A DNA stretch of 64,000 nt from a virus. Lineage: Duplodnaviria > Heunggongvirae > Uroviricota > Caudoviricetes. Shown here in pieces: positions 1 through 8,527 of the stretch. Made by a program: the position numbers and the translations under genes. Under the pieces are notes generated by a model, which had not been told where the DNA came from, ran no database searches, and saw only the letters and a list, made by a program, of their open reading frames with translations. The stretch is from the IMG/VR virus record IMGVR_UViG_2565956614_000003; one strand, 5' to 3'. Within the stretch, counting starts at the first letter, position 1. Every line of letters begins with the position of its first letter.

Positions 1-468
1 TTATGCCGCCCTTACGATGTAATTAAATGCAATATTACGGGGGCGGGTTTCAGATGCTGTACGAACTGAGCGAGAGGCGTCGAATGTCCAGTTATAAGAG
101 CCATAACCCTCAATAATTTCCGTTTCCTTTAGGCCTGTAGATAATACTTGACCATGTTGACTAAATGGCCCTGAACTAAGTACATCTCTAAAAAGCTGAG
201 TACGCCCGAAAGAACCAACAATATTCTGAATTGCATCATTCTGTGCAGATAATAAATTACGGCCAGAGTCAATCCCCCGCCCGTCATCCCAGCCGCGAAT
301 AAATTCGCCCCGTAGATCCGGCAATTTATTAGTGGGGTAAACCTTTGCCAGATTTGGGTACTTTTCAGAAGAAAATGCTGCACCATTGCATTTCAGCCAC
401 CCCGTTGGCGGTGTGGCTGAGGGCCATGGAACAGGTACACCAACGGGCAGTGCCGAGCCTTCCCCCAA
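1..468 (-). CDS. Tail-fibre variable C-terminal segment (Sv-prime-like) inside the Cin-invertible C segment; frame opens at the crossover site (TTG pseudo-start), stop at window edge
   Basis: 155-aa frame with phage tail-collar motif GWLKCNGAAFSS...LPDLRGEFIRGWDDGRG; lies next to cin; in-frame stop at 478-480 just upstream. Confidence 0.6.
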   Translation of the reverse strand: MGEGSALPVGVPVPWPSATPPTGWLKCNGAAFSSEKYPNLAKVYPTNKLPDLRGEFIRGWDDGRGIDSGRNLLSAQNDAIQNIVGSFGRTQLFRDVLSSGPFSQHGQVLSTGLKETEIIEGYGSYNWTFDASRSVRTASETRPRNIAFNYIVRAA

Positions 469-485
469 ACCAACGTTTTAGTCTT
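460..485. other. cix-like Cin crossover site (ttcccccaaacc-aa-cgttttagtctt)
   Basis: Resembles hix/gix/cix left half-site TTCC..AAACC with AA core; about 45 bp upstream of cin; right half poorly conserved. Confidence 0.35.
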
Positions 486-530
486 AATCCCTACCTATAC
501 CAACGATGTATTTTTAACTAAACAAAGAGG

Positions 531-1112
531 TTGTTTTTCATGCAAATTGGCTACATTCGTGTGTCAACAAATGACCAAAACACAGATTTACAAAGAAATG
601 CACTGAACTGCGCAGGATGTGAACTGATTTTTGAAGATAAAATAAGCGGAACAAAGTCAGCCAGACCAGGCTTGAAAAAGCTGCTCAGAACGTTATCAGA
701 AGGAGATACGCTGGTTGTCTGGAAGCTGGATAGGCTTGGCAGAAGTATGAAACACCTTATCACGCTTATAGAGGAGTTGCGGGAAAAAGGTGTTAATTTC
801 CGTAGTCTGACAGACAGTATTGACACATCAACACCCATGGGGCGTTTCTTTTTTCATGTCATGGGTGCTTTAGCAGAAATGGAACGTGAATTAATTGTTG
901 AGAGAACACTGGCCGGACTGGCAGCTGCACGCGAACAGGGACGCATTGGCGGACGTCGCCCGAAGTTGACAAAAGAACAACATGAGCAAATAGCGAGGTT
1001 GATCGAAAATGGCTACAGCAGGAAACAGTTGGCAATTATTTACGATATCGGTGTATCGACGATTTATCGTTATCATCCTGTAGAGAAGCGCCAAACTCAA
1101 TCTGAGCTGTAA
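531..1112 (+). CDS. cin: Serine-recombinase DNA invertase (Cin/Gin/Hin/Pin family)
   Basis: 193 aa; N-terminal catalytic motif GYIRVSTNDQ, C-terminal HTH; RBS aaagagg upstream; adjacent to tail-fibre segment. Confidence 0.95.
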   Translation: MFFMQIGYIRVSTNDQNTDLQRNALNCAGCELIFEDKISGTKSARPGLKKLLRTLSEGDTLVVWKLDRLGRSMKHLITLIEELREKGVNFRSLTDSIDTSTPMGRFFFHVMGALAEMERELIVERTLAGLAAAREQGRIGGRRPKLTKEQHEQIARLIENGYSRKQLAIIYDIGVSTIYRYHPVEKRQTQSEL

Positions 1113-1547
1113 TTCTAATGCCGCGTCGGTGTAATTTATCTTGATAGAATAGGTACATTTATCGCGCGGCACATCAATTCGATGTATCTAGCGCCTGCTG
1201 GCCGCTAATGAAAACTGTTCTCGAAATGTTGTCCCTAGTCCGAGACTAGGGTATCACCTCTGGAAAGCATACGCAGAACCTTTTTTAACCCAGGGTGCCC
1301 AGCTTTTTTGCTGCTCGCCTTATTCGCAAAAATTAGCTCACATCCTGCGCTTTCAAGTGCTTTTCACTGCATAGCTGTGTTTTGTTCATTTGTCTATATG
1401 CGTACATAGCCTATTAGCATATTTTCTGCCCACTATCGTTATTTATTGCAAGCTACAGGTTTTAATTAACAAAACCAGTGTGTGTGGAAATCACAAAGTG
1501 CATACCGTTCTCAAATGTTGTTCAACTTACTGTTGTATAGGTAAAAA

Positions 1548-1811
1548 ATGACATTTTATGTACATATCGTGATGTTATCCCTTCTTGGTGGGGTGTATTC
1601 GTATTTGAGTGGGCTATGTGAAAACCGTTACGAGTCTTCATGCAAGAAATTGCTGGCCGAATGTATTTCCGCCGTACTTGCTGGCTTTATTGGCATGTAT
1701 CTCGCGGAATATAAGGACATGAATGAAAGCCTTCAGAGCTGCATGGTTCTTATTTTCAGCGCCAATAGCAGGCTTATTATTGAAGGTTCCAAAAGTCGGT
1801 TGAATAGGTAA
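1548..1811 (+). CDS. Small membrane protein at head of lysis/dar operon (LydC-like position)
   Basis: 87 aa, hydrophobic segments; position between cin and lydA. Confidence 0.45.
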   Translation: MTFYVHIVMLSLLGGVYSYLSGLCENRYESSCKKLLAECISAVLAGFIGMYLAEYKDMNESLQSCMVLIFSANSRLIIEGSKSRLNR

Positions 1812-1836
1812 GTCTCTTATGCAACATAACCGGTTG

Positions 1837-1858
1837 AGAAGTTACTTTGCATACCATT
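1837..1858 (+). promoter_or_regulatory. Late-promoter-like element (gagaagtta-N7-taccat) upstream of lydA
   Basis: 6/9 match to recurrent 9-mer AACAAGTGA, 7-bp spacer, TANNNT hexamer; weaker than other copies. Confidence 0.25.
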
Positions 1859-1885
1859 ACCTCCTGACAACGTAGGAGGGAACTT

Positions 1886-2215
1886 GTGCTTGACACACAG
1901 GAATTAGCTCCAGTTGCAATTGCGCTCCTGCTTTCAGTAATTGGTGGGATAGGCACGTTCCTGATGGATGTCCGAGACGGTCGCCAGTCTGGCAATTTGT
2001 TGGGATTGGTTACGGAGATCTTTGTTGCAGTGACAGCTGGCGCGGTGGCGTACCTATTGGGGCAACACGAGGGCTGGGAGTTATCAATTACGTACTTAAT
2101 GGTAACGATAGCCAGCAATAACGGTCATGAGGTGATTTCAGGGATGAAACGAGTGAATATCGATAGCATTCTGAATGTTCTTACAAGTTTGGTGAAAAAG
2201 GGAGGCGGGAAATGA
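1886..2215 (+). CDS. lydA: Holin LydA
   Basis: 109 aa with transmembrane segments and charged C-terminus; synteny with P1 lydA-lydB. Confidence 0.8.
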   Translation: MLDTQELAPVAIALLLSVIGGIGTFLMDVRDGRQSGNLLGLVTEIFVAVTAGAVAYLLGQHEGWELSITYLMVTIASNNGHEVISGMKRVNIDSILNVLTSLVKKGGGK

Positions 2216-2655
2216 TTGGCTGGGGTGTATGCGTTCTTGCGTTAGCCTTAGCCGATCGCTATTTGCTAAAACGCAAGGACATCACGCATTTAGAACTTGG
2301 TGATGTGGAAATTAAACCGGGTTTCATCCGGGTGCCGTTCAAATACCGGTCTAAATTCCCGTTTTTGCGCGGCGCAACGGTCAGATATTGGATCCGCGAT
2401 GTTCAGAAGCCGACGACAGTGATTGAAGGCGAACAACGTTGTTTGACGTCGGCTGAACAGGGCGAAAACAGTGAATGGTTGTACATACCCACTGAATATA
2501 TGGGTAAAGGAGAGCGACTGTGGCATTTCAACGTCATGGTTACGCATGGCGACTCGTTCATTAACCCGTTGTATCGGATTTTCCCTGTTACTCAGCAAAT
2601 CCGCAGAAGTTACGTAATAAATCTCGCACAGGATGTGTCAGATGACGAAAAATAA
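2212..2655 (+). CDS. lydB: Antiholin LydB
   Basis: 147 aa; start overlaps lydA stop (translational coupling); synteny. Confidence 0.7.
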   Translation: MIGWGVCVLALALADRYLLKRKDITHLELGDVEIKPGFIRVPFKYRSKFPFLRGATVRYWIRDVQKPTTVIEGEQRCLTSAEQGENSEWLYIPTEYMGKGERLWHFNVMVTHGDSFINPLYRIFPVTQQIRRSYVINLAQDVSDDEK

Positions 2656-3245: not shown

Positions 3246-5165
3246 ATGGAACAGTTCAATATCAATAAAGGGGTGACGATCAAGCCTGGGCTTGACGTGC
3301 TTCCCCCGCCAGTGACTGATGATGAATATCGCGCATTAATGGCCGGTGAGGACCGCTATCTGATGACGGAATCCAACACCCTGGAGGAAATCGAGGCTAC
3401 GTTCTTCTATGACACGCCGATCCACTGGTGTGCTACGGATTTACTGGAGGCGATTAGTTCTACTCGTTTGCAGTTACACCGGACCATGCAGGCATTTGTC
3501 CGGGCATTGAACCAGAAGCTGAATGGTACCGGAATCTCTGCGGGGAGTGATAAAACGGGGGAGGTGGCCCAGAGCGGCGCGCGCGCGATCGGCGGTGCTG
3601 AAATTGGCCGGGCACGTAACGTTAACGGGCTGCCGGTCCTGCCAGCCATTATTCCGCTCAGTGATGGTCAGACTATCAGCATTCTGTTTCATAGCCCGAC
3701 AGCGGAAAACCGGATCACCAATAGCGATACGCTGGTTGCTTTCCAGTTCTTACTGAATAAAAAAGACGTTACTCACACCGTTGCTCCGATGAGTGGACGT
3801 GATATGACGCTGGCGCAGGTCACCATGAAACTTGCCAACCTTGCAGAGAAAAACTCGGCAAAATTCCAGCGTGCGCAGAAGAAGAAAAAAGCCCTGGTTG
3901 ATGAAATAACCCAACTACAGGCTGACAGTGACCAGAAAGAGGATGCCATGAGCGACCTCGCGGATCAGGTGGCAGCGGTAGAAGGGCAGAAGGTAGATCT
4001 GGAGCAGAAAATTAACGCTGTTGCATCGGAAGCGGATTCTCTTTATGAAGAGAATGAGCGTTTGCAGACGGAGATTGATCAGCTCAATCGCACAGGTGGG
4101 CGCGATACCATTGATCCAGCGGGGATGACTGGTGGGCACTCGCGCGCGCTGACGGATCGCCTTGCCAGTATCAAAAATCGTATGCATATGAACGGGGAAG
4201 TGACGCTCAGTAATGGAGCATCAATGAAGCAATTCATTGGGGGCGGCGAAGGGTATATCCAGTTAACCGATCCGGATGGCAGCGTATACATGATCAAGGC
4301 TAAATCCATACAGGGTGTGGACATGGCAGATGCGATCGGCAAGCTGTTTAAAGCCTATAAAGCGGGTAATGTATCGGAATACCTGGTCCAACCAGAAGAA
4401 CATAAACCGGAAAACGTCGAACCTGAACCAGCGGAGGATACCGGTAGCTCTTCGCCTGAACCAGAAGTCTCTGTAGGTGCATATCGATATGCCCTGCAAA
4501 TGCGTCCGGCGGCCCCTGGCGCAATACCTGAAGGTAACAAAGCAATTCTGCCGCGCCCTGATGAAGGTGACCCGTATTATGAATATGCACGCTACGGCAT
4601 TGCTACTTACGATACCCCGCTTTCTGATCAGCAAATGAGTGAGTACGACCTGAAGTTATTGCCTCGCGAGGATTCTTTCGACTTCCTGGCGAAGACACTT
4701 ACTAATGGTCCGTTTGGCAAATATGCACAAAAAGCTCTGGAGCTGGCCACCAGCTCACCAGACGAGTTCCGCGTAATGCTGAAAACTCAGTTTCAAAAAA
4801 CTTTCCCCAATATTGCGTTTCCTGGGGGCGCTGGCACCGAGAAAATGGTGCAGAGCATGATCAATGCATTGCAGGCCGAAGTCGGTGAGATTACTCAGCC
4901 AGAACCGGCCCCGGCACAGCCTGATGAAACGGTTAGCGAAGCAGATGCAGAGGCTAATAAAGCCATTGAATATCTCAATAACGTGATGGATATACAAAGC
5001 ACTGACATGGCGGAGATCCGTAACGCCCGGGGCAATGTCCGGGAAGCGATTGCAGCCCTTCAGGCTGCCGGACGTTTTGAGGAAAACGAAGAGCTGGTTA
5101 ACGGCGCAGCTCGCCACCTGGCTGATCTGTTGGTAGCAATCCAGAAAGCGGGGGTAGCGGCATGA
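3246..5165 (+). CDS. darA: DarA, internal head protein of the defence-against-restriction system
   Basis: 639 aa, coiled-coil central region; position and size match P1 darA. Confidence 0.8.
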   Translation: MEQFNINKGVTIKPGLDVLPPPVTDDEYRALMAGEDRYLMTESNTLEEIEATFFYDTPIHWCATDLLEAISSTRLQLHRTMQAFVRALNQKLNGTGISAGSDKTGEVAQSGARAIGGAEIGRARNVNGLPVLPAIIPLSDGQTISILFHSPTAENRITNSDTLVAFQFLLNKKDVTHTVAPMSGRDMTLAQVTMKLANLAEKNSAKFQRAQKKKKALVDEITQLQADSDQKEDAMSDLADQVAAVEGQKVDLEQKINAVASEADSLYEENERLQTEIDQLNRTGGRDTIDPAGMTGGHSRALTDRLASIKNRMHMNGEVTLSNGASMKQFIGGGEGYIQLTDPDGSVYMIKAKSIQGVDMADAIGKLFKAYKAGNVSEYLVQPEEHKPENVEPEPAEDTGSSSPEPEVSVGAYRYALQMRPAAPGAIPEGNKAILPRPDEGDPYYEYARYGIATYDTPLSDQQMSEYDLKLLPREDSFDFLAKTLTNGPFGKYAQKALELATSSPDEFRVMLKTQFQKTFPNIAFPGGAGTEKMVQSMINALQAEVGEITQPEPAPAQPDETVSEADAEANKAIEYLNNVMDIQSTDMAEIRNARGNVREAIAALQAAGRFEENEELVNGAARHLADLLVAIQKAGVAA

Positions 5166-5539: not shown

Positions 5540-8527
5540 ATGAGCTTAAGCGATCAGGTGGTAATGGCCACCAGCATAGAAACGCTGATCGAGCTGCTAA
5601 AAAACCTGCCCAATTACGGGCGGGTTTCGTATGTGGTGACAGCGAAGGGAGACGAGGTAAAAACAGCGTTTGATATCGTCGATGCCTCAGCTCTTTTGGT
5701 ATCCAATACTCTGGACGGGAAAATTAACCCTGACTATCCCCAGGAACTTCAGCCGCGCGACCGGACCCGCGCATCCAGTCTTCTTCAGGTCAACCAGATA
5801 TCCAAGGATTTGCGTCCTGCCCAGCTTACCGATTCCGGTTTATCCAGCCATGGCGCGCCGATAATTGGTGAGGACAATGCCGTTGAGTCAGGTAATGGAC
5901 GGACCATGGGGATCATCAAAGCCTATCAGGACGGCAATGCGGATCGGTATCGTGAGTACCTGATTGATCATGCGACCGAATTCGGCATACGACCTGAAAA
6001 GGTTGAATCAATGGCGGCTCCGGTACTGGTGCGCCGCCGGTTAACTAAGGTTGACCGCGTTCAGTTTGCCAAGGACTCAAATATTTCTGATCTTCAGGAA
6101 ATGGCAGCCAGTGAAAAGGCTTTTGTTGATGCCGACAGCATAACACCGGCGATGATGGCGCTTTTTAACCCGTCAGAAAGCGGAGATCTGCTTAGCCGCA
6201 GTAATGACACGTTTATTCGCGGATTTATGACGCAAGTTGGTGCCACACAGGCGGCTGGCCTTGTAACTGAAGATGGGCGACCAACACGGCAACTTGTAGA
6301 CCGTATACAAAACGCGATCTTTGCCAAGGCATATAAGGATGCGCGCCTGGTAAGGATGGTTGCAGAAGAACCTGATCCGGATATGCGTAATGTTCTGACG
6401 GCGCTTAATGCGGCAGCCAATGATTTTGTCCAGATGCAGGCTTTGTCAGGAGAAGCGCACAAGCAGGCTGTGACAACTATTGTTGATGGCATTGAGACAG
6501 CGGATAGCCTCGATAAAAAGGCGCTGGCGGCATTGAAAGATGCGGTAGACCTGGTAAGGCAATCGAAGGAGTTAGGCCAGCATATTACCGATGTTATTGC
6601 TCAGGGGGATATGTTCAGCGAAACGGCCCCGGAAGTGAAAGCACTCGCGTTGTTCATCGTCGCGAATAACCGTAGCGCGAAGCGTATGGCCACCGCCTTT
6701 AAGTTGATGGCGCAACGTATCAATGATGAGTTACAGCACCAGGGCCAGGCGCTCGGGGATATGTTTGGCGGCGGCGATGTGTCGTTACAGGATATCCTTC
6801 GCCAGGTGTCTCAGGAACTGGAAAACGAAGGCATGCAAGGGATATCCGGCGGTCTTTTCGAGTCCGTTTCCGGCGGTAGTTACAACGGTGTTGCTCCGTA
6901 TACCAGTTTGCTATTACATCGGGCATCCGGCATCAAAGACATTATTCATCTGATCAGGCTGCTTTCCCGCACAGATCCCCAGGATGAACAGCTTGTACAA
7001 GTGCTTGCGCATTTTGTTCGAATGCCTGTTGCCGACGTGAATAAATGGTGCCGATTATTCGGTATCAGCAATTCGTTACTTCGCGGATTGTTAAATCACG
7101 CATCCTCCCTTGGGCGCGACGGCTTTGATGAGATAGCGCAGGCGATACAAAACGGAGATATGCCACCAGCTATTGACTGGTTTTCCATTCGCCCAACCAG
7201 GGTGAAAGCATTCCTTAGCGCGGCGCATTCGGCATCACCATTGGCAGAAATGGTTCAGAGGTTGTCGCTCATATTCACAGACCATACCGCGTTGGGTGAT
7301 CTGACTCTGGACGAGATGAAAGAAGCCTCCATTCAGTGGGCCGATCAACAAAATGAGGTTAACTCAGACTTCTTGCCAGCATTCAGGAAGGCCGTTAGTA
7401 AAGCGGATGATTCCCGTGGAATTCTGAAGGCATTTAAGGCATTGCAAAGTCGGGTTAATAAACATGTCGGAGATATCGATGGGGTAACGGCGGAAGGCAG
7501 GGATATCCTTAAAGAGCACGGCATAACGCCAGAGTTTATTGATGAGATCAGGACGGATATGCAGCGTGAGGTCGTATCGTCCCTGCAAATTGTAGCCAGA
7601 GCGTTGGCGGATGCTAATCCGAAGAGTGCGGCCATTGTTAACCGGGTTATTGGTGATATTGAAGCATCGGAGGGCATGGGGGCGCTGAAACTCTTCCTTT
7701 CGCGAGCGTTTAATCCTAACGGCAATATTCTCCCTGGCATTATTGGTGAGGCTAAAAAGTATGTCAGTGAAGAAGAACTTGAGCAGCTTGACCAACTACT
7801 TAAGCGATTCTCATATAACCCGCAGACACGCTGGCAAATGAATCAGCGAAGTATGGGTTCGGTCCACGAGAAAGTGTTATCTGCCATGAACAGTGCGATC
7901 GCAAACTCATCCGTATCTGAAGAAAAAGCTCTTGAGTGGGCCGACTCTTTTATCACAGAAGAAGTGGAAGAAGCCCGCGCTGGACAGAATGGTGGGATAG
8001 ACCTGCGCAAGGAACTTGCTGATATTTATCGCCTGACCGGCGGGAAAATATCGACCTTATCAAAGGTAGTTCACCACCAGGGAAGGGCATATGCAAATCT
8101 AAATGGTGTTGTTGCTGTCAATTTGAACGATGAAAATGCAAGTGCACTGTGGCACGAGCTGGGTCATCATCTTGAGTACAGTAACCCCGGTTTGTTAGAG
8201 AAAGCCCGGTCATTCCTGAAGGCCAATGTTGAAGGGGATAAGCCATCTTTCGTCAATATCGGTGGGCGTGGCAAGCCTGAATGGTGCTTCAGATCTCGAT
8301 TGAGTAATATTTATATGGCGAAGGTATACCCGCCAGCCTCAGTAAGTAACACCGGGAAAATTCGGCAGAAATCACCGACTATTTCCAAAACGTCAGCAAC
8401 GGAAGTATTCTCTATGGCTCTTCAGTTGTATCATGACAAAGAGGCCGCTGCCGCATCACTGATGAATGGTGACGGATTGCTGGAACTGTTATTAGGTGTG
8501 GCAAAGGAGCTAAATAATGCAGATTAA
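5540..8527 (+). CDS. ddrB: DdrB, large Dar-operon head protein
   Basis: 995 aa; synteny and size match P1 ddrB. Confidence 0.75.
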   Translation: MSLSDQVVMATSIETLIELLKNLPNYGRVSYVVTAKGDEVKTAFDIVDASALLVSNTLDGKINPDYPQELQPRDRTRASSLLQVNQISKDLRPAQLTDSGLSSHGAPIIGEDNAVESGNGRTMGIIKAYQDGNADRYREYLIDHATEFGIRPEKVESMAAPVLVRRRLTKVDRVQFAKDSNISDLQEMAASEKAFVDADSITPAMMALFNPSESGDLLSRSNDTFIRGFMTQVGATQAAGLVTEDGRPTRQLVDRIQNAIFAKAYKDARLVRMVAEEPDPDMRNVLTALNAAANDFVQMQALSGEAHKQAVTTIVDGIETADSLDKKALAALKDAVDLVRQSKELGQHITDVIAQGDMFSETAPEVKALALFIVANNRSAKRMATAFKLMAQRINDELQHQGQALGDMFGGGDVSLQDILRQVSQELENEGMQGISGGLFESVSGGSYNGVAPYTSLLLHRASGIKDIIHLIRLLSRTDPQDEQLVQVLAHFVRMPVADVNKWCRLFGISNSLLRGLLNHASSLGRDGFDEIAQAIQNGDMPPAIDWFSIRPTRVKAFLSAAHSASPLAEMVQRLSLIFTDHTALGDLTLDEMKEASIQWADQQNEVNSDFLPAFRKAVSKADDSRGILKAFKALQSRVNKHVGDIDGVTAEGRDILKEHGITPEFIDEIRTDMQREVVSSLQIVARALADANPKSAAIVNRVIGDIEASEGMGALKLFLSRAFNPNGNILPGIIGEAKKYVSEEELEQLDQLLKRFSYNPQTRWQMNQRSMGSVHEKVLSAMNSAIANSSVSEEKALEWADSFITEEVEEARAGQNGGIDLRKELADIYRLTGGKISTLSKVVHHQGRAYANLNGVVAVNLNDENASALWHELGHHLEYSNPGLLEKARSFLKANVEGDKPSFVNIGGRGKPEWCFRSRLSNIYMAKVYPPASVSNTGKIRQKSPTISKTSATEVFSMALQLYHDKEAAAASLMNGDGLLELLLGVAKELNNAD

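Follow-up and report, generated by a model that had tools for sequence, protein, structure and literature searches.

The window, by which the whole analysed stretch of 64,000 nucleotides is meant, was found to be a P1-like (Punavirus) replicon from position 1244 on, with lydC, lydA, lydB, hdf, and darA about 93% identical to P1. For positions 1–1243, no megablast match was present in P1 or P7. Matches to this part were found in 207 plasmid records, and 117 of 5426 complete E. coli genomes contained 80% or more of it. The features of this edge and of its border with the P1-like part are listed below.

1–7: TTATGCC, where cassette A ends with its last codons and stop; these 7 nt are, in relatives, also the outer end of the following 26-bp site (TTCCCCTAAACCAACGTTT followed by TTATGCC)
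1–468, minus strand: open reading frame of 155 aa with a TTG start, as given in the ORF list
1–471, minus strand: silent tail-fibre 3' cassette ‘A’, 156 codons from the crossover core (471 to 4) plus a TAA stop at 3–1
471–256, minus strand: conserved collar block of cassette A, codons 1–72
255–46, minus strand: variable receptor-binding insert of cassette A, codons 73–142
45–4, minus strand: conserved closing strand of cassette A, RPRNIAFNYIVRAA, codons 143–156
460–485, plus strand: 26-bp invertase-proximal site, mix/cix-like, TTCCCCCAAACC-AA-CGTTTTAGTCTT, with the core dinucleotide at 472–473
486–539, plus strand: spacer of 54 nt from the site to the invertase start codon, with a Shine-Dalgarno-like AAAGAGG read directly
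540–1112, plus strand: probable Min-type serine DNA invertase of 190 aa, reading away from the invertible region
558–629, plus strand: stretch homologous, by sequence identity, to the annotated recombinational enhancer of P1 cin (gene nt 19–90)
1244–1420, minus strand (reads 1420 to 1244): truncated cin-like pseudogene corresponding to cin nt 1–177, with stops at codons 9 and 19
1421–1534, minus strand: what remains of the upstream and promoter region of P1 cin, with the -35 kept and a -10 of TAAAAC, not TAAAAT

Around the start of cassette A, the coding strand reads TAA AAC GTT GGT TTG GGG GAA. The frame opens at GGT (471), directly at the TT core, and the upstream TAA closes it three codons before the core, so that the cassette has neither an ATG nor a ribosome-binding site of its own. 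[quoted passage not shown] It was also aligned over its full length with the ‘short tail fiber’ chain of 9CUY (E 8e-27). The tip of T4 gp37 (2XGF) aligned with the cassette in the collar at the start and at the extreme C-terminus, where NIAFNYIVR is common to both (...NIAFNYIVRLA in gp37 vs ...NIAFNYIVRAA here). This alignment of fibre tips at both termini explains why the cassette ends are conserved and only the middle varies. T4 carries one fixed tip, whereas exchange here concerns collar and tip together, as one whole module. The exact 155-aa product of cassette A is on record in 454 contigs.

Scans with the sigma-70 consensus and with the P1 late -22/-10 pattern returned no match pointing into cassette A or lying upstream of tfa, the assembly gene found in relatives, and match counts did not exceed the shuffle expectation. 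Otherwise, the 64-kb window contained no collar cassette, constant fibre part, tfa, or gene R. It starts exactly at the stop codon of cassette A, in a region that is repeat-rich in relatives. The 26-bp site at 460–485 occurred once in the window, with 0 occurrences expected in shuffles, and had the TT core and 9 of 12 inner half-site bases in common with P1 cixL and cixR.

An earlier note on this DNA had described a 155-codon tail-collar frame oriented away from any promoter, running from a cix-like crossover site at 460–485 to a stop at the window edge, and had taken it for a fibre protein and a currently silent 3' exon of the fibre gene. These points were borne out by the fibre-protein alignments, the promoter scans, and the single 26-bp site, although the frame counts 156 codons when read from the core. 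The same start-less and promoter-less frame is furthermore fused to the constant gene in the plasmid pUTME-8-1. The evidence thus supports cassette A as a currently silent 3' exon of the fibre gene, in the last position beside the invertase.

The invertase was assigned a Resolvase domain (E 2e-51) and an HTH_7 domain (E 3e-15), and its catalytic serine is Ser9 in the directly read motif YIRVSTNDQ. The best solved relative was Mu Gin (3UJ3/4M6F) with an E of ~1e-92 over residues 1–185, while the PHROG ‘DNA invertase’ was matched with an E of 1e-98 and the amino acid identity to P1 Cin was 72.6%. Judged by size, domains, and active-site serine, the protein belongs to the Din family (Hin/Gin/Cin/Pin/Min). 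The identical protein, WP_001165547.1, was present in the related loci L003, L005, L006, L007, L020, and L021 and on at least 1000 contigs. Source names in its 90% cluster were only ‘recombinase family protein’ and never ‘Min’, while neighbouring clusters were named ‘e14’ or ‘Fin’, and NCBIfam held no equivalog for the invertase, the cassette, or tfa. In the spacer at 486–539, no consensus promoter was found on either strand.

The enhancer-like stretch at 558–629 was 80.6% identical to the P1 enhancer at the nucleotide level vs 68% gene-wide, and a conserved Fis-like 15-mer, GCGCAGGATGTGAAC, was found within it at 610–624. An enhancer within the 5' coding region of the invertase is therefore likely on the basis of homology to P1. 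The pseudogene next to the invertase is 177 nt long, about 88% identical to cin, and breaks off abruptly. It occupies the position and orientation of P1 cin and contains a second enhancer-like stretch at 1331–1402, with 60/67 identity to the P1 enhancer region.

Sites and cassette orders in related plasmids

Sites and cassettes were mapped in 16 related loci, and the one visible cassette of the window was counted as a 17th order. The window itself holds one site and one cassette, while the multi-cassette structure was taken from relatives that are 98–99.8% identical to it over positions 1–1300. The best match to the edge, pEH09-18-41_2 (99.8%), carried 10 cassettes, 10 sites, and one tfa, followed by the same invertase. 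Between 5 and 11 cassettes were found in each of the 16 related P1-like plasmids, and every cassette started at the TT core of its own site. Cassettes were 143–169 codons long and consisted of a conserved collar block of about 72 residues, a variable middle, and the conserved end RPRNIAFNYIVRAA. Twelve variable cores were told apart and named A to L. Each locus is built around a central unit, F>tfa><G, at which the cassettes on either side are aimed: those to its left read rightward, and those to its right read leftward. Cassette orders differed from one another in 17 of 17 cases, and some cassettes were present in duplicate, such as E in L003. In the relatives' fibre protein, likeness to P1 S was confined to the first 252 residues, with 94% identity to S residues 1–252, and the constant fibre gene of each relative ended in the site TTCTTRATTACC-TT-GGTTTRGGGGAA. 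Both 26-bp sites and collar-domain 3' fragments have been described earlier (PMC4134206).

The TT core was present in 110 of 110 sites from 15 loci, and the inner half-site GGTTTRGGRGAA was kept in all of them. As in the Din family, the 26-bp sites consist of two 12-bp half-sites, imperfectly inverted, on either side of a 2-bp core. Outer half-sites were degenerate, with 5–7 of 12 positions symmetric. The internal outer half-site GGCATAAAAACG recurred in 62 of the 110 sites, while TTCTTRATTACC stayed fixed at the end of the constant gene across the mapped loci and AAGACTAAAACG (coding strand) always adjoined the invertase in all 15 loci having it. Beside the fixed AAGACTAAAACG, the inner half-site and the cassette varied, with A, B, C, D, E, G, H, and I found in this place. 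The generic site pattern occurred 9 times in 5.5 kb from the nearest relative vs 0.24 expected.

In relatives, the stop codon of one cassette is part of the outer half-site (GGCATAAAAACG) of the next site, so that TTATGCC at 1–7 is there also the last 7 nt of another site. The counterpart of this site in L003 spans 4948–4973, and window base 1 corresponds to L003 4967. By comparison with these relatives, the site would extend leftward past window base 1. The record origin of L003 falls within a site, and an odd in-frame partial duplication is found there.

Partner sites and the constant part had been expected outside the window, and this held, as none was present in the 64 kb and inverted partner sites were located 2–6 kb leftward in relatives. 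All relatives examined had such inverted partners on both sides of alternative gene parts. Two further expectations of the earlier note did not survive the comparison. A single second variable cassette had been proposed, while the relatives show 4–10 further cassettes with one site each. The orientation had also been thought to tell which variant is expressed, yet relatives with cassette A in the same silent position express cassette I, B, G, or H.

Cassette A was unexpressed in the window and in most of the 16 relatives. Its exact 155-aa product was found in ten different neighbourhoods and in both orientations relative to the invertase, occupying the first, second, or third slot from the invertase or a slot beyond the centre in fibre-gene orientation. 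In pUTME-8-1, cassette A is joined in frame to the constant part, as the 3' end of the full-length fibre gene annotated there, while the invertase-proximal slot holds cassette D behind the same fixed half-site. Core A was found with WPSATPP or WPLETPP and with NLAKVYPTN or NLAKAYPTN versions of the N-terminal block in different plasmids, which indicates that some exchange takes place inside the ~200-bp repeats and not only at the site core. Within the conserved block, homologous recombination or conversion thus has a share in the exchange.

The records p1-HYM1 and p1-T-HYM1, regarded as one plasmid assembled twice, have consecutive accessions and agree in their flanking proteins, and 8 kb of backbone counted from the invertase start showed 0 mismatches. 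In p1-HYM1, the constant part is followed by x B F tfa> <G <I <H <C <D <x <A. In p1-T-HYM1, it is followed by H C I G <tfa <F <B <D <E <A, with tfa opposite to p1-HYM1, in keeping with a recent rearrangement. Going by the names only, T-HYM1 may be derived from HYM1. Frameshifted and partial cassettes are carried by HYM1.

Relation to p15B Min and competing explanations

The RefSeq record of P1 notes four stretches of p15B (X62121), a plasmid of E. coli 15T-, with their identity to P1, and the comparison of the window with p15B goes through those notes. The four stretches and their counterparts are as follows.

Window 564–634 (in the invertase, over the P1 enhancer), p15B 6463–6533: 59/71 = 83.1% to P1 without a gap; record 83%, 0 gaps
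Window 1248–1509 (pseudogene), p15B 7147–7408: 89.7% to P1 with 1 gap; record 89%, 1 gap
Window 1584–1737, p15B 7483–7638: 84.4% to P1; record 84%
Window 1829–2395, p15B 7728–8294: 99.6% to P1; record 99%

As the four landmarks lie at a constant offset of +5899, window 540–2395 would by these notes be collinear with p15B X62121 6439–8294. By this indirect route via the P1 record notes, the invertase at 540–1112 would be min, and the pseudogene would correspond to psi-win of p15B. The p15B min gene reportedly lies beside psi-win, a truncated invertase gene, with the invertible region on one side and lydC on the other, as described by Sandmeier in 1991. Six crossover sites are said to have been counted in p15B by Sandmeier et al. 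in 1990/1991, and Min-mediated inversion was reportedly shown experimentally for p15B by Sandmeier, Iida, Arber and colleagues in 1990–92.

The window and p15B Min have in common a P1-related backbone, a serine invertase reading away from the invertible region, and an adjoining truncated second invertase gene. A further likeness, seen here in relatives, is the presence of many 26-bp sites, with a different 3' end of the one tail-fibre gene behind each of them. The six sites reported for p15B Min differ from the 5–11 cassettes carried by the relatives of the window. Positions 1–1112 are very probably the invertase-proximal edge of a Min-type (p15B type) multiple-inversion tail-fibre shufflon on a P1-like phage-plasmid. 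Min is a serine recombinase whose multiple inversions lead to variable tail fibres (PMC6109161), and a Min-like invertase with 98.5% amino acid identity, reversed relative to cin, is known from another P1-like plasmid (PMC6906374).

With the Cin C-segment of P1 and P7, the locus shares its slot (from the tail-fibre operon to lydC), the recombinase family, the TT core, and a similar inner half-site, GGTTTRRGRGAA. In P1, there are two sites, and a separate U chaperone accompanies each of the two long Sv arms, whereas short collar modules and one lambda-type tfa are found here. P1 cin points toward the segment and has its stop within cixL, whereas the present invertase points away from it and has its start codon 54 nt from the site. 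According to the earlier note, the window opened inside a Cin-invertible segment, with the frame directly abutting cin. An invertase-driven invertible tail-fibre region is indeed present, but the enzyme is not Cin, given the identity of 72.6%, the opposite orientation, and the presence of cin only as a pseudogene. Likewise, a serine invertase does lie 54 nt beyond the site, but its 5' end and not its 3' end adjoins it.

Small serine invertases with a C-terminal HTH, 26-bp sites, and a 2-bp core are also found in Mu Gin, the e14 Pin/P-segment, and Salmonella Hin. Din-family systems have their enhancer within or beside the invertase gene, and the enhancer-like stretch here lies within it. In Mu, the invertase gene is located outside the segment and reads away from it, as it does in the window. 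Mu Gin, e14 Pin, and Salmonella Hin are two-site, two-state switches, unlike the multi-site loci of the relatives. The R64 shufflon (Rci, PilV tips) is similar in its many sites, overlapping invertible segments, and alternative C-terminal tips on one constant gene. However, its enzyme Rci belongs to the tyrosine recombinases and uses asymmetric sfx sites, and an R64-type shufflon was ruled out since the recombinase here is of the serine/resolvase class.

Under the Min-type explanation, the constant 5' part of the fibre gene, outside the window, would end in a 26-bp site, with 5–11 promoter-less and start-less cassettes downstream. The invertase, probably with Fis on the enhancer in its own 5' coding region, would pair one left and one right site. 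Staggered cuts at the common TT core, followed by strand rotation and religation, would then invert all DNA between the two sites and join a different cassette in frame to the constant part. As all cores are identical and only inverted pairs would be used, the arrangement in which cassettes point to the centre would be kept. A single inversion between the site at 460–485 and that of the constant part would be expected to place cassette A under expression. Catalysis by this invertase, its dependence on Fis and the enhancer, and a change of host range are predicted by analogy with the known systems.

Whether the state seen in the window is representative was considered separately. It is possible, although on balance unlikely, that this state is an assembly artefact, with a mixture of isomers in the source culture, a contig break in repeats at the window start, and the recorded state being one of several. 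The window begins at a cassette stop codon that lies 19 nt into a site of relatives, and several draft contigs with cassette A end within the invertible region (L015–L019). The record origin and partial duplication of L003 and the irregular cassettes of HYM1 point in the same direction, and PacBio assemblies have been split on such inversions (PMC4134206). However, the junction of cassette A, site, and invertase recurs base for base in several finished plasmids. An artefact of this kind would bear on how representative the state is and not on the identity of the element, and it is compatible with a Min-type shufflon.

A decayed shufflon is quite improbable. Its sites and cassettes would be relics, and the different orders would result from RecA-dependent recombination between the conserved blocks of ~200 bp and not from the invertase. 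The mosaic N-terminal blocks around the same core A and the duplicated cassette E in L003 are consistent with such recombination. Against it, the invertase is intact, many plasmids share it without a difference, and it is found on at least 1000 contigs, while the TT core and inner half-site are kept in 110/110 sites. Furthermore, every arrangement fits the topology of site-specific exchange by inversion only, and the HYM1 and T-HYM1 assemblies differ by a multi-step rearrangement on an identical backbone. Min inversion in p15B was reportedly also demonstrated by experiment, in the work of Sandmeier, Iida, Arber and colleagues.

The classical two-state Cin switch of P1, in which one segment between cixL and cixR carries Sv-U and Sv'-U' and the window would show Sv' beside cin, draws on the P1-like backbone, the TT core with 9/12 inner half-site bases of cix, and the 72.6% identity to Cin, but it has next to no credibility and is refuted by orientation (an invertase opposite to P1 cin, with a separate truncated cin remnant at 1420–1244), by homology, and by cassette number (5–11 cassettes and sites in relatives). 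As for homology, positions 1–1243 were found by megablast in neither P1 nor P7, the cassette has 156 codons vs 519 for P1 Sv', and the relatives' tfa had no BLASTP match (E<1e-3) to U or U'. The likeness to P1 Sv/Sv' and Mu S' suggested earlier was not recovered either; for P1, cassette A gave no BLASTP match to S or Sv' at the same threshold.

The assembly gene tfa and meaning for P1-like phage-plasmids

One tfa of the Caudo_TAP/lambda type was present per locus in 16 of 16 relatives. As it is locked in the central unit F>tfa><G, it is flipped by every inversion. It ran in the direction of the fibre operon in 9 loci and antisense to it in 7, and the promoter scans found none that would express tfa in the antisense state. 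That tfa forms a hidden second layer of the switch is a doubtful proposition, for which three readings were considered. Firstly, collar-type tips may fold without Tfa. Secondly, an unrecognised leftward transcript from near the invertase or the psi-cin remnant may run through the ‘silent’ cassettes, including 471–1, into tfa. The psi-cin promoter as the driver of leftward transcription was dropped to a weak lead, since its -35 is kept but its -10 is TAAAAC. Thirdly, working fibres may come from isomers of one parity only, with the shufflon doubling as an on/off device.

The system is of an already known kind, whose first description dates back over 30 years and which has many entries in databases. 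The result is mainly a correction of annotation and leaves the current understanding of serine invertases unchanged. Modern P1-like phage-plasmids are usually described with ‘cin-Sv'-U'-U-S'’ (PMC9603915), while PGAP annotates every tip as a separate ‘phage tail protein’. Many P1-like phage-plasmids carry resistance genes.

In a large subset of P1-like phage-plasmids, the module is that of the p15B Min type, in which up to about 11 receptor-binding tips can be exchanged. For assembly quality, it matters that contigs break or are mis-joined in the cassette region. For engineering, the cassettes are compact and self-contained collar-plus-tip modules. For the prediction of host range, many specificities have to be considered per replicon, and an assembled cassette order is a snapshot.

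Evidence for a former Cin-type module

Four features lie to the right of the invertase gene.

Window 1232-1250, sequence read: perfect 8-bp palindrome, CCCTAGTC-cga-GACTAGGG
Window 1244-1420, (-): cin-like pseudogene, truncated to the stretch of cin nt 1-177, with its upstream region to about 1534
Window 1331-1402: enhancer-like stretch retained within the pseudogene
Window 1839-1857, (+): sequence identical to LPdar, a late promoter of P1, with -22 box AAGTTACTT and -10 element

The cin-like pseudogene was about 88% identical to its P1 counterpart and carried stops at codons 9 and 19. Both its position and its orientation matched those of P1 cin. Of the P1cin promoter elements upstream, the -35 was retained and the -10 read TAAAAC. 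This remnant is evidence for replacement of a Cin-type module by one of Min type. The palindrome falls exactly on the truncation junction (1243/1244), which may be where the inserted module ends. The LPdar copy, positioned upstream of lydA, was the only match to a P1 late promoter in window 1-2500.

Collar block and conserved end of cassette A

The silent tail-fibre cassette A closes with an end that is also present in all cassettes of the relatives.

Window 4-45, (-): conserved cassette end, RPRNIAFNYIVRAA

This end matches the extreme C-terminus of T4 gp37, KNIAFNYIVRLA (PDB 2XGF). Both cassette ends would be conserved because the chain apparently comes back to close the collar, with the variable part appearing as an insertion between them. 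The conserved N-terminal block (window 256-471) was compared with the cassettes of related plasmid loci L007 (8999-9483), L009, and L006, and its versions differed while the variable core was the same, with WPSATPP or WPLETPP and NLAKVYPTN or NLAKAYPTN on one core. Because a single core carries differing blocks, exchange, as read from these sequences, also takes place inside the repeats of about 200 bp and not at the 2-bp core alone.

The single tail-fibre assembly gene and record anomalies

The tail-fibre assembly gene tfa was compared in related loci L003, L005, L007, and L009-L022, where it occurs once per locus in the central unit F>tfa><G, which lies outside the window. No crossover site separates tfa from cassettes F and G in this unit, and tfa is therefore flipped by every inversion. 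In 9 loci it ran in the same direction as the fibre gene, and in 7 it was antisense. A promoter for the antisense state was looked for and not found, and a second tfa was absent from the 64-kb window. In NZ_CP063505.1 (L003/L004), the record origin falls inside a crossover site, and the annotated fibre gene holds an in-frame partial cassette of 56 residues and, after it, another cassette start. This probably arose as an artefact when the repeat region was assembled or circularised. Comparable frameshifted or partial cassettes occurred in pPC6-mcr1, p1-HYM1, and phage records ON470615 and ON470617.

Cassette A core in chromosomes

The variable core of cassette A (window 25-275) matched E. coli chromosomes at about 93.6% nucleotide identity (e.g., NZ_CP027105.1 1641029-1641279), and 55 of its 133 matching places were chromosomal. 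Since these places are presumably prophages, fibre tips are, judging by such matches, common to P1-like plasmids and integrated phages.
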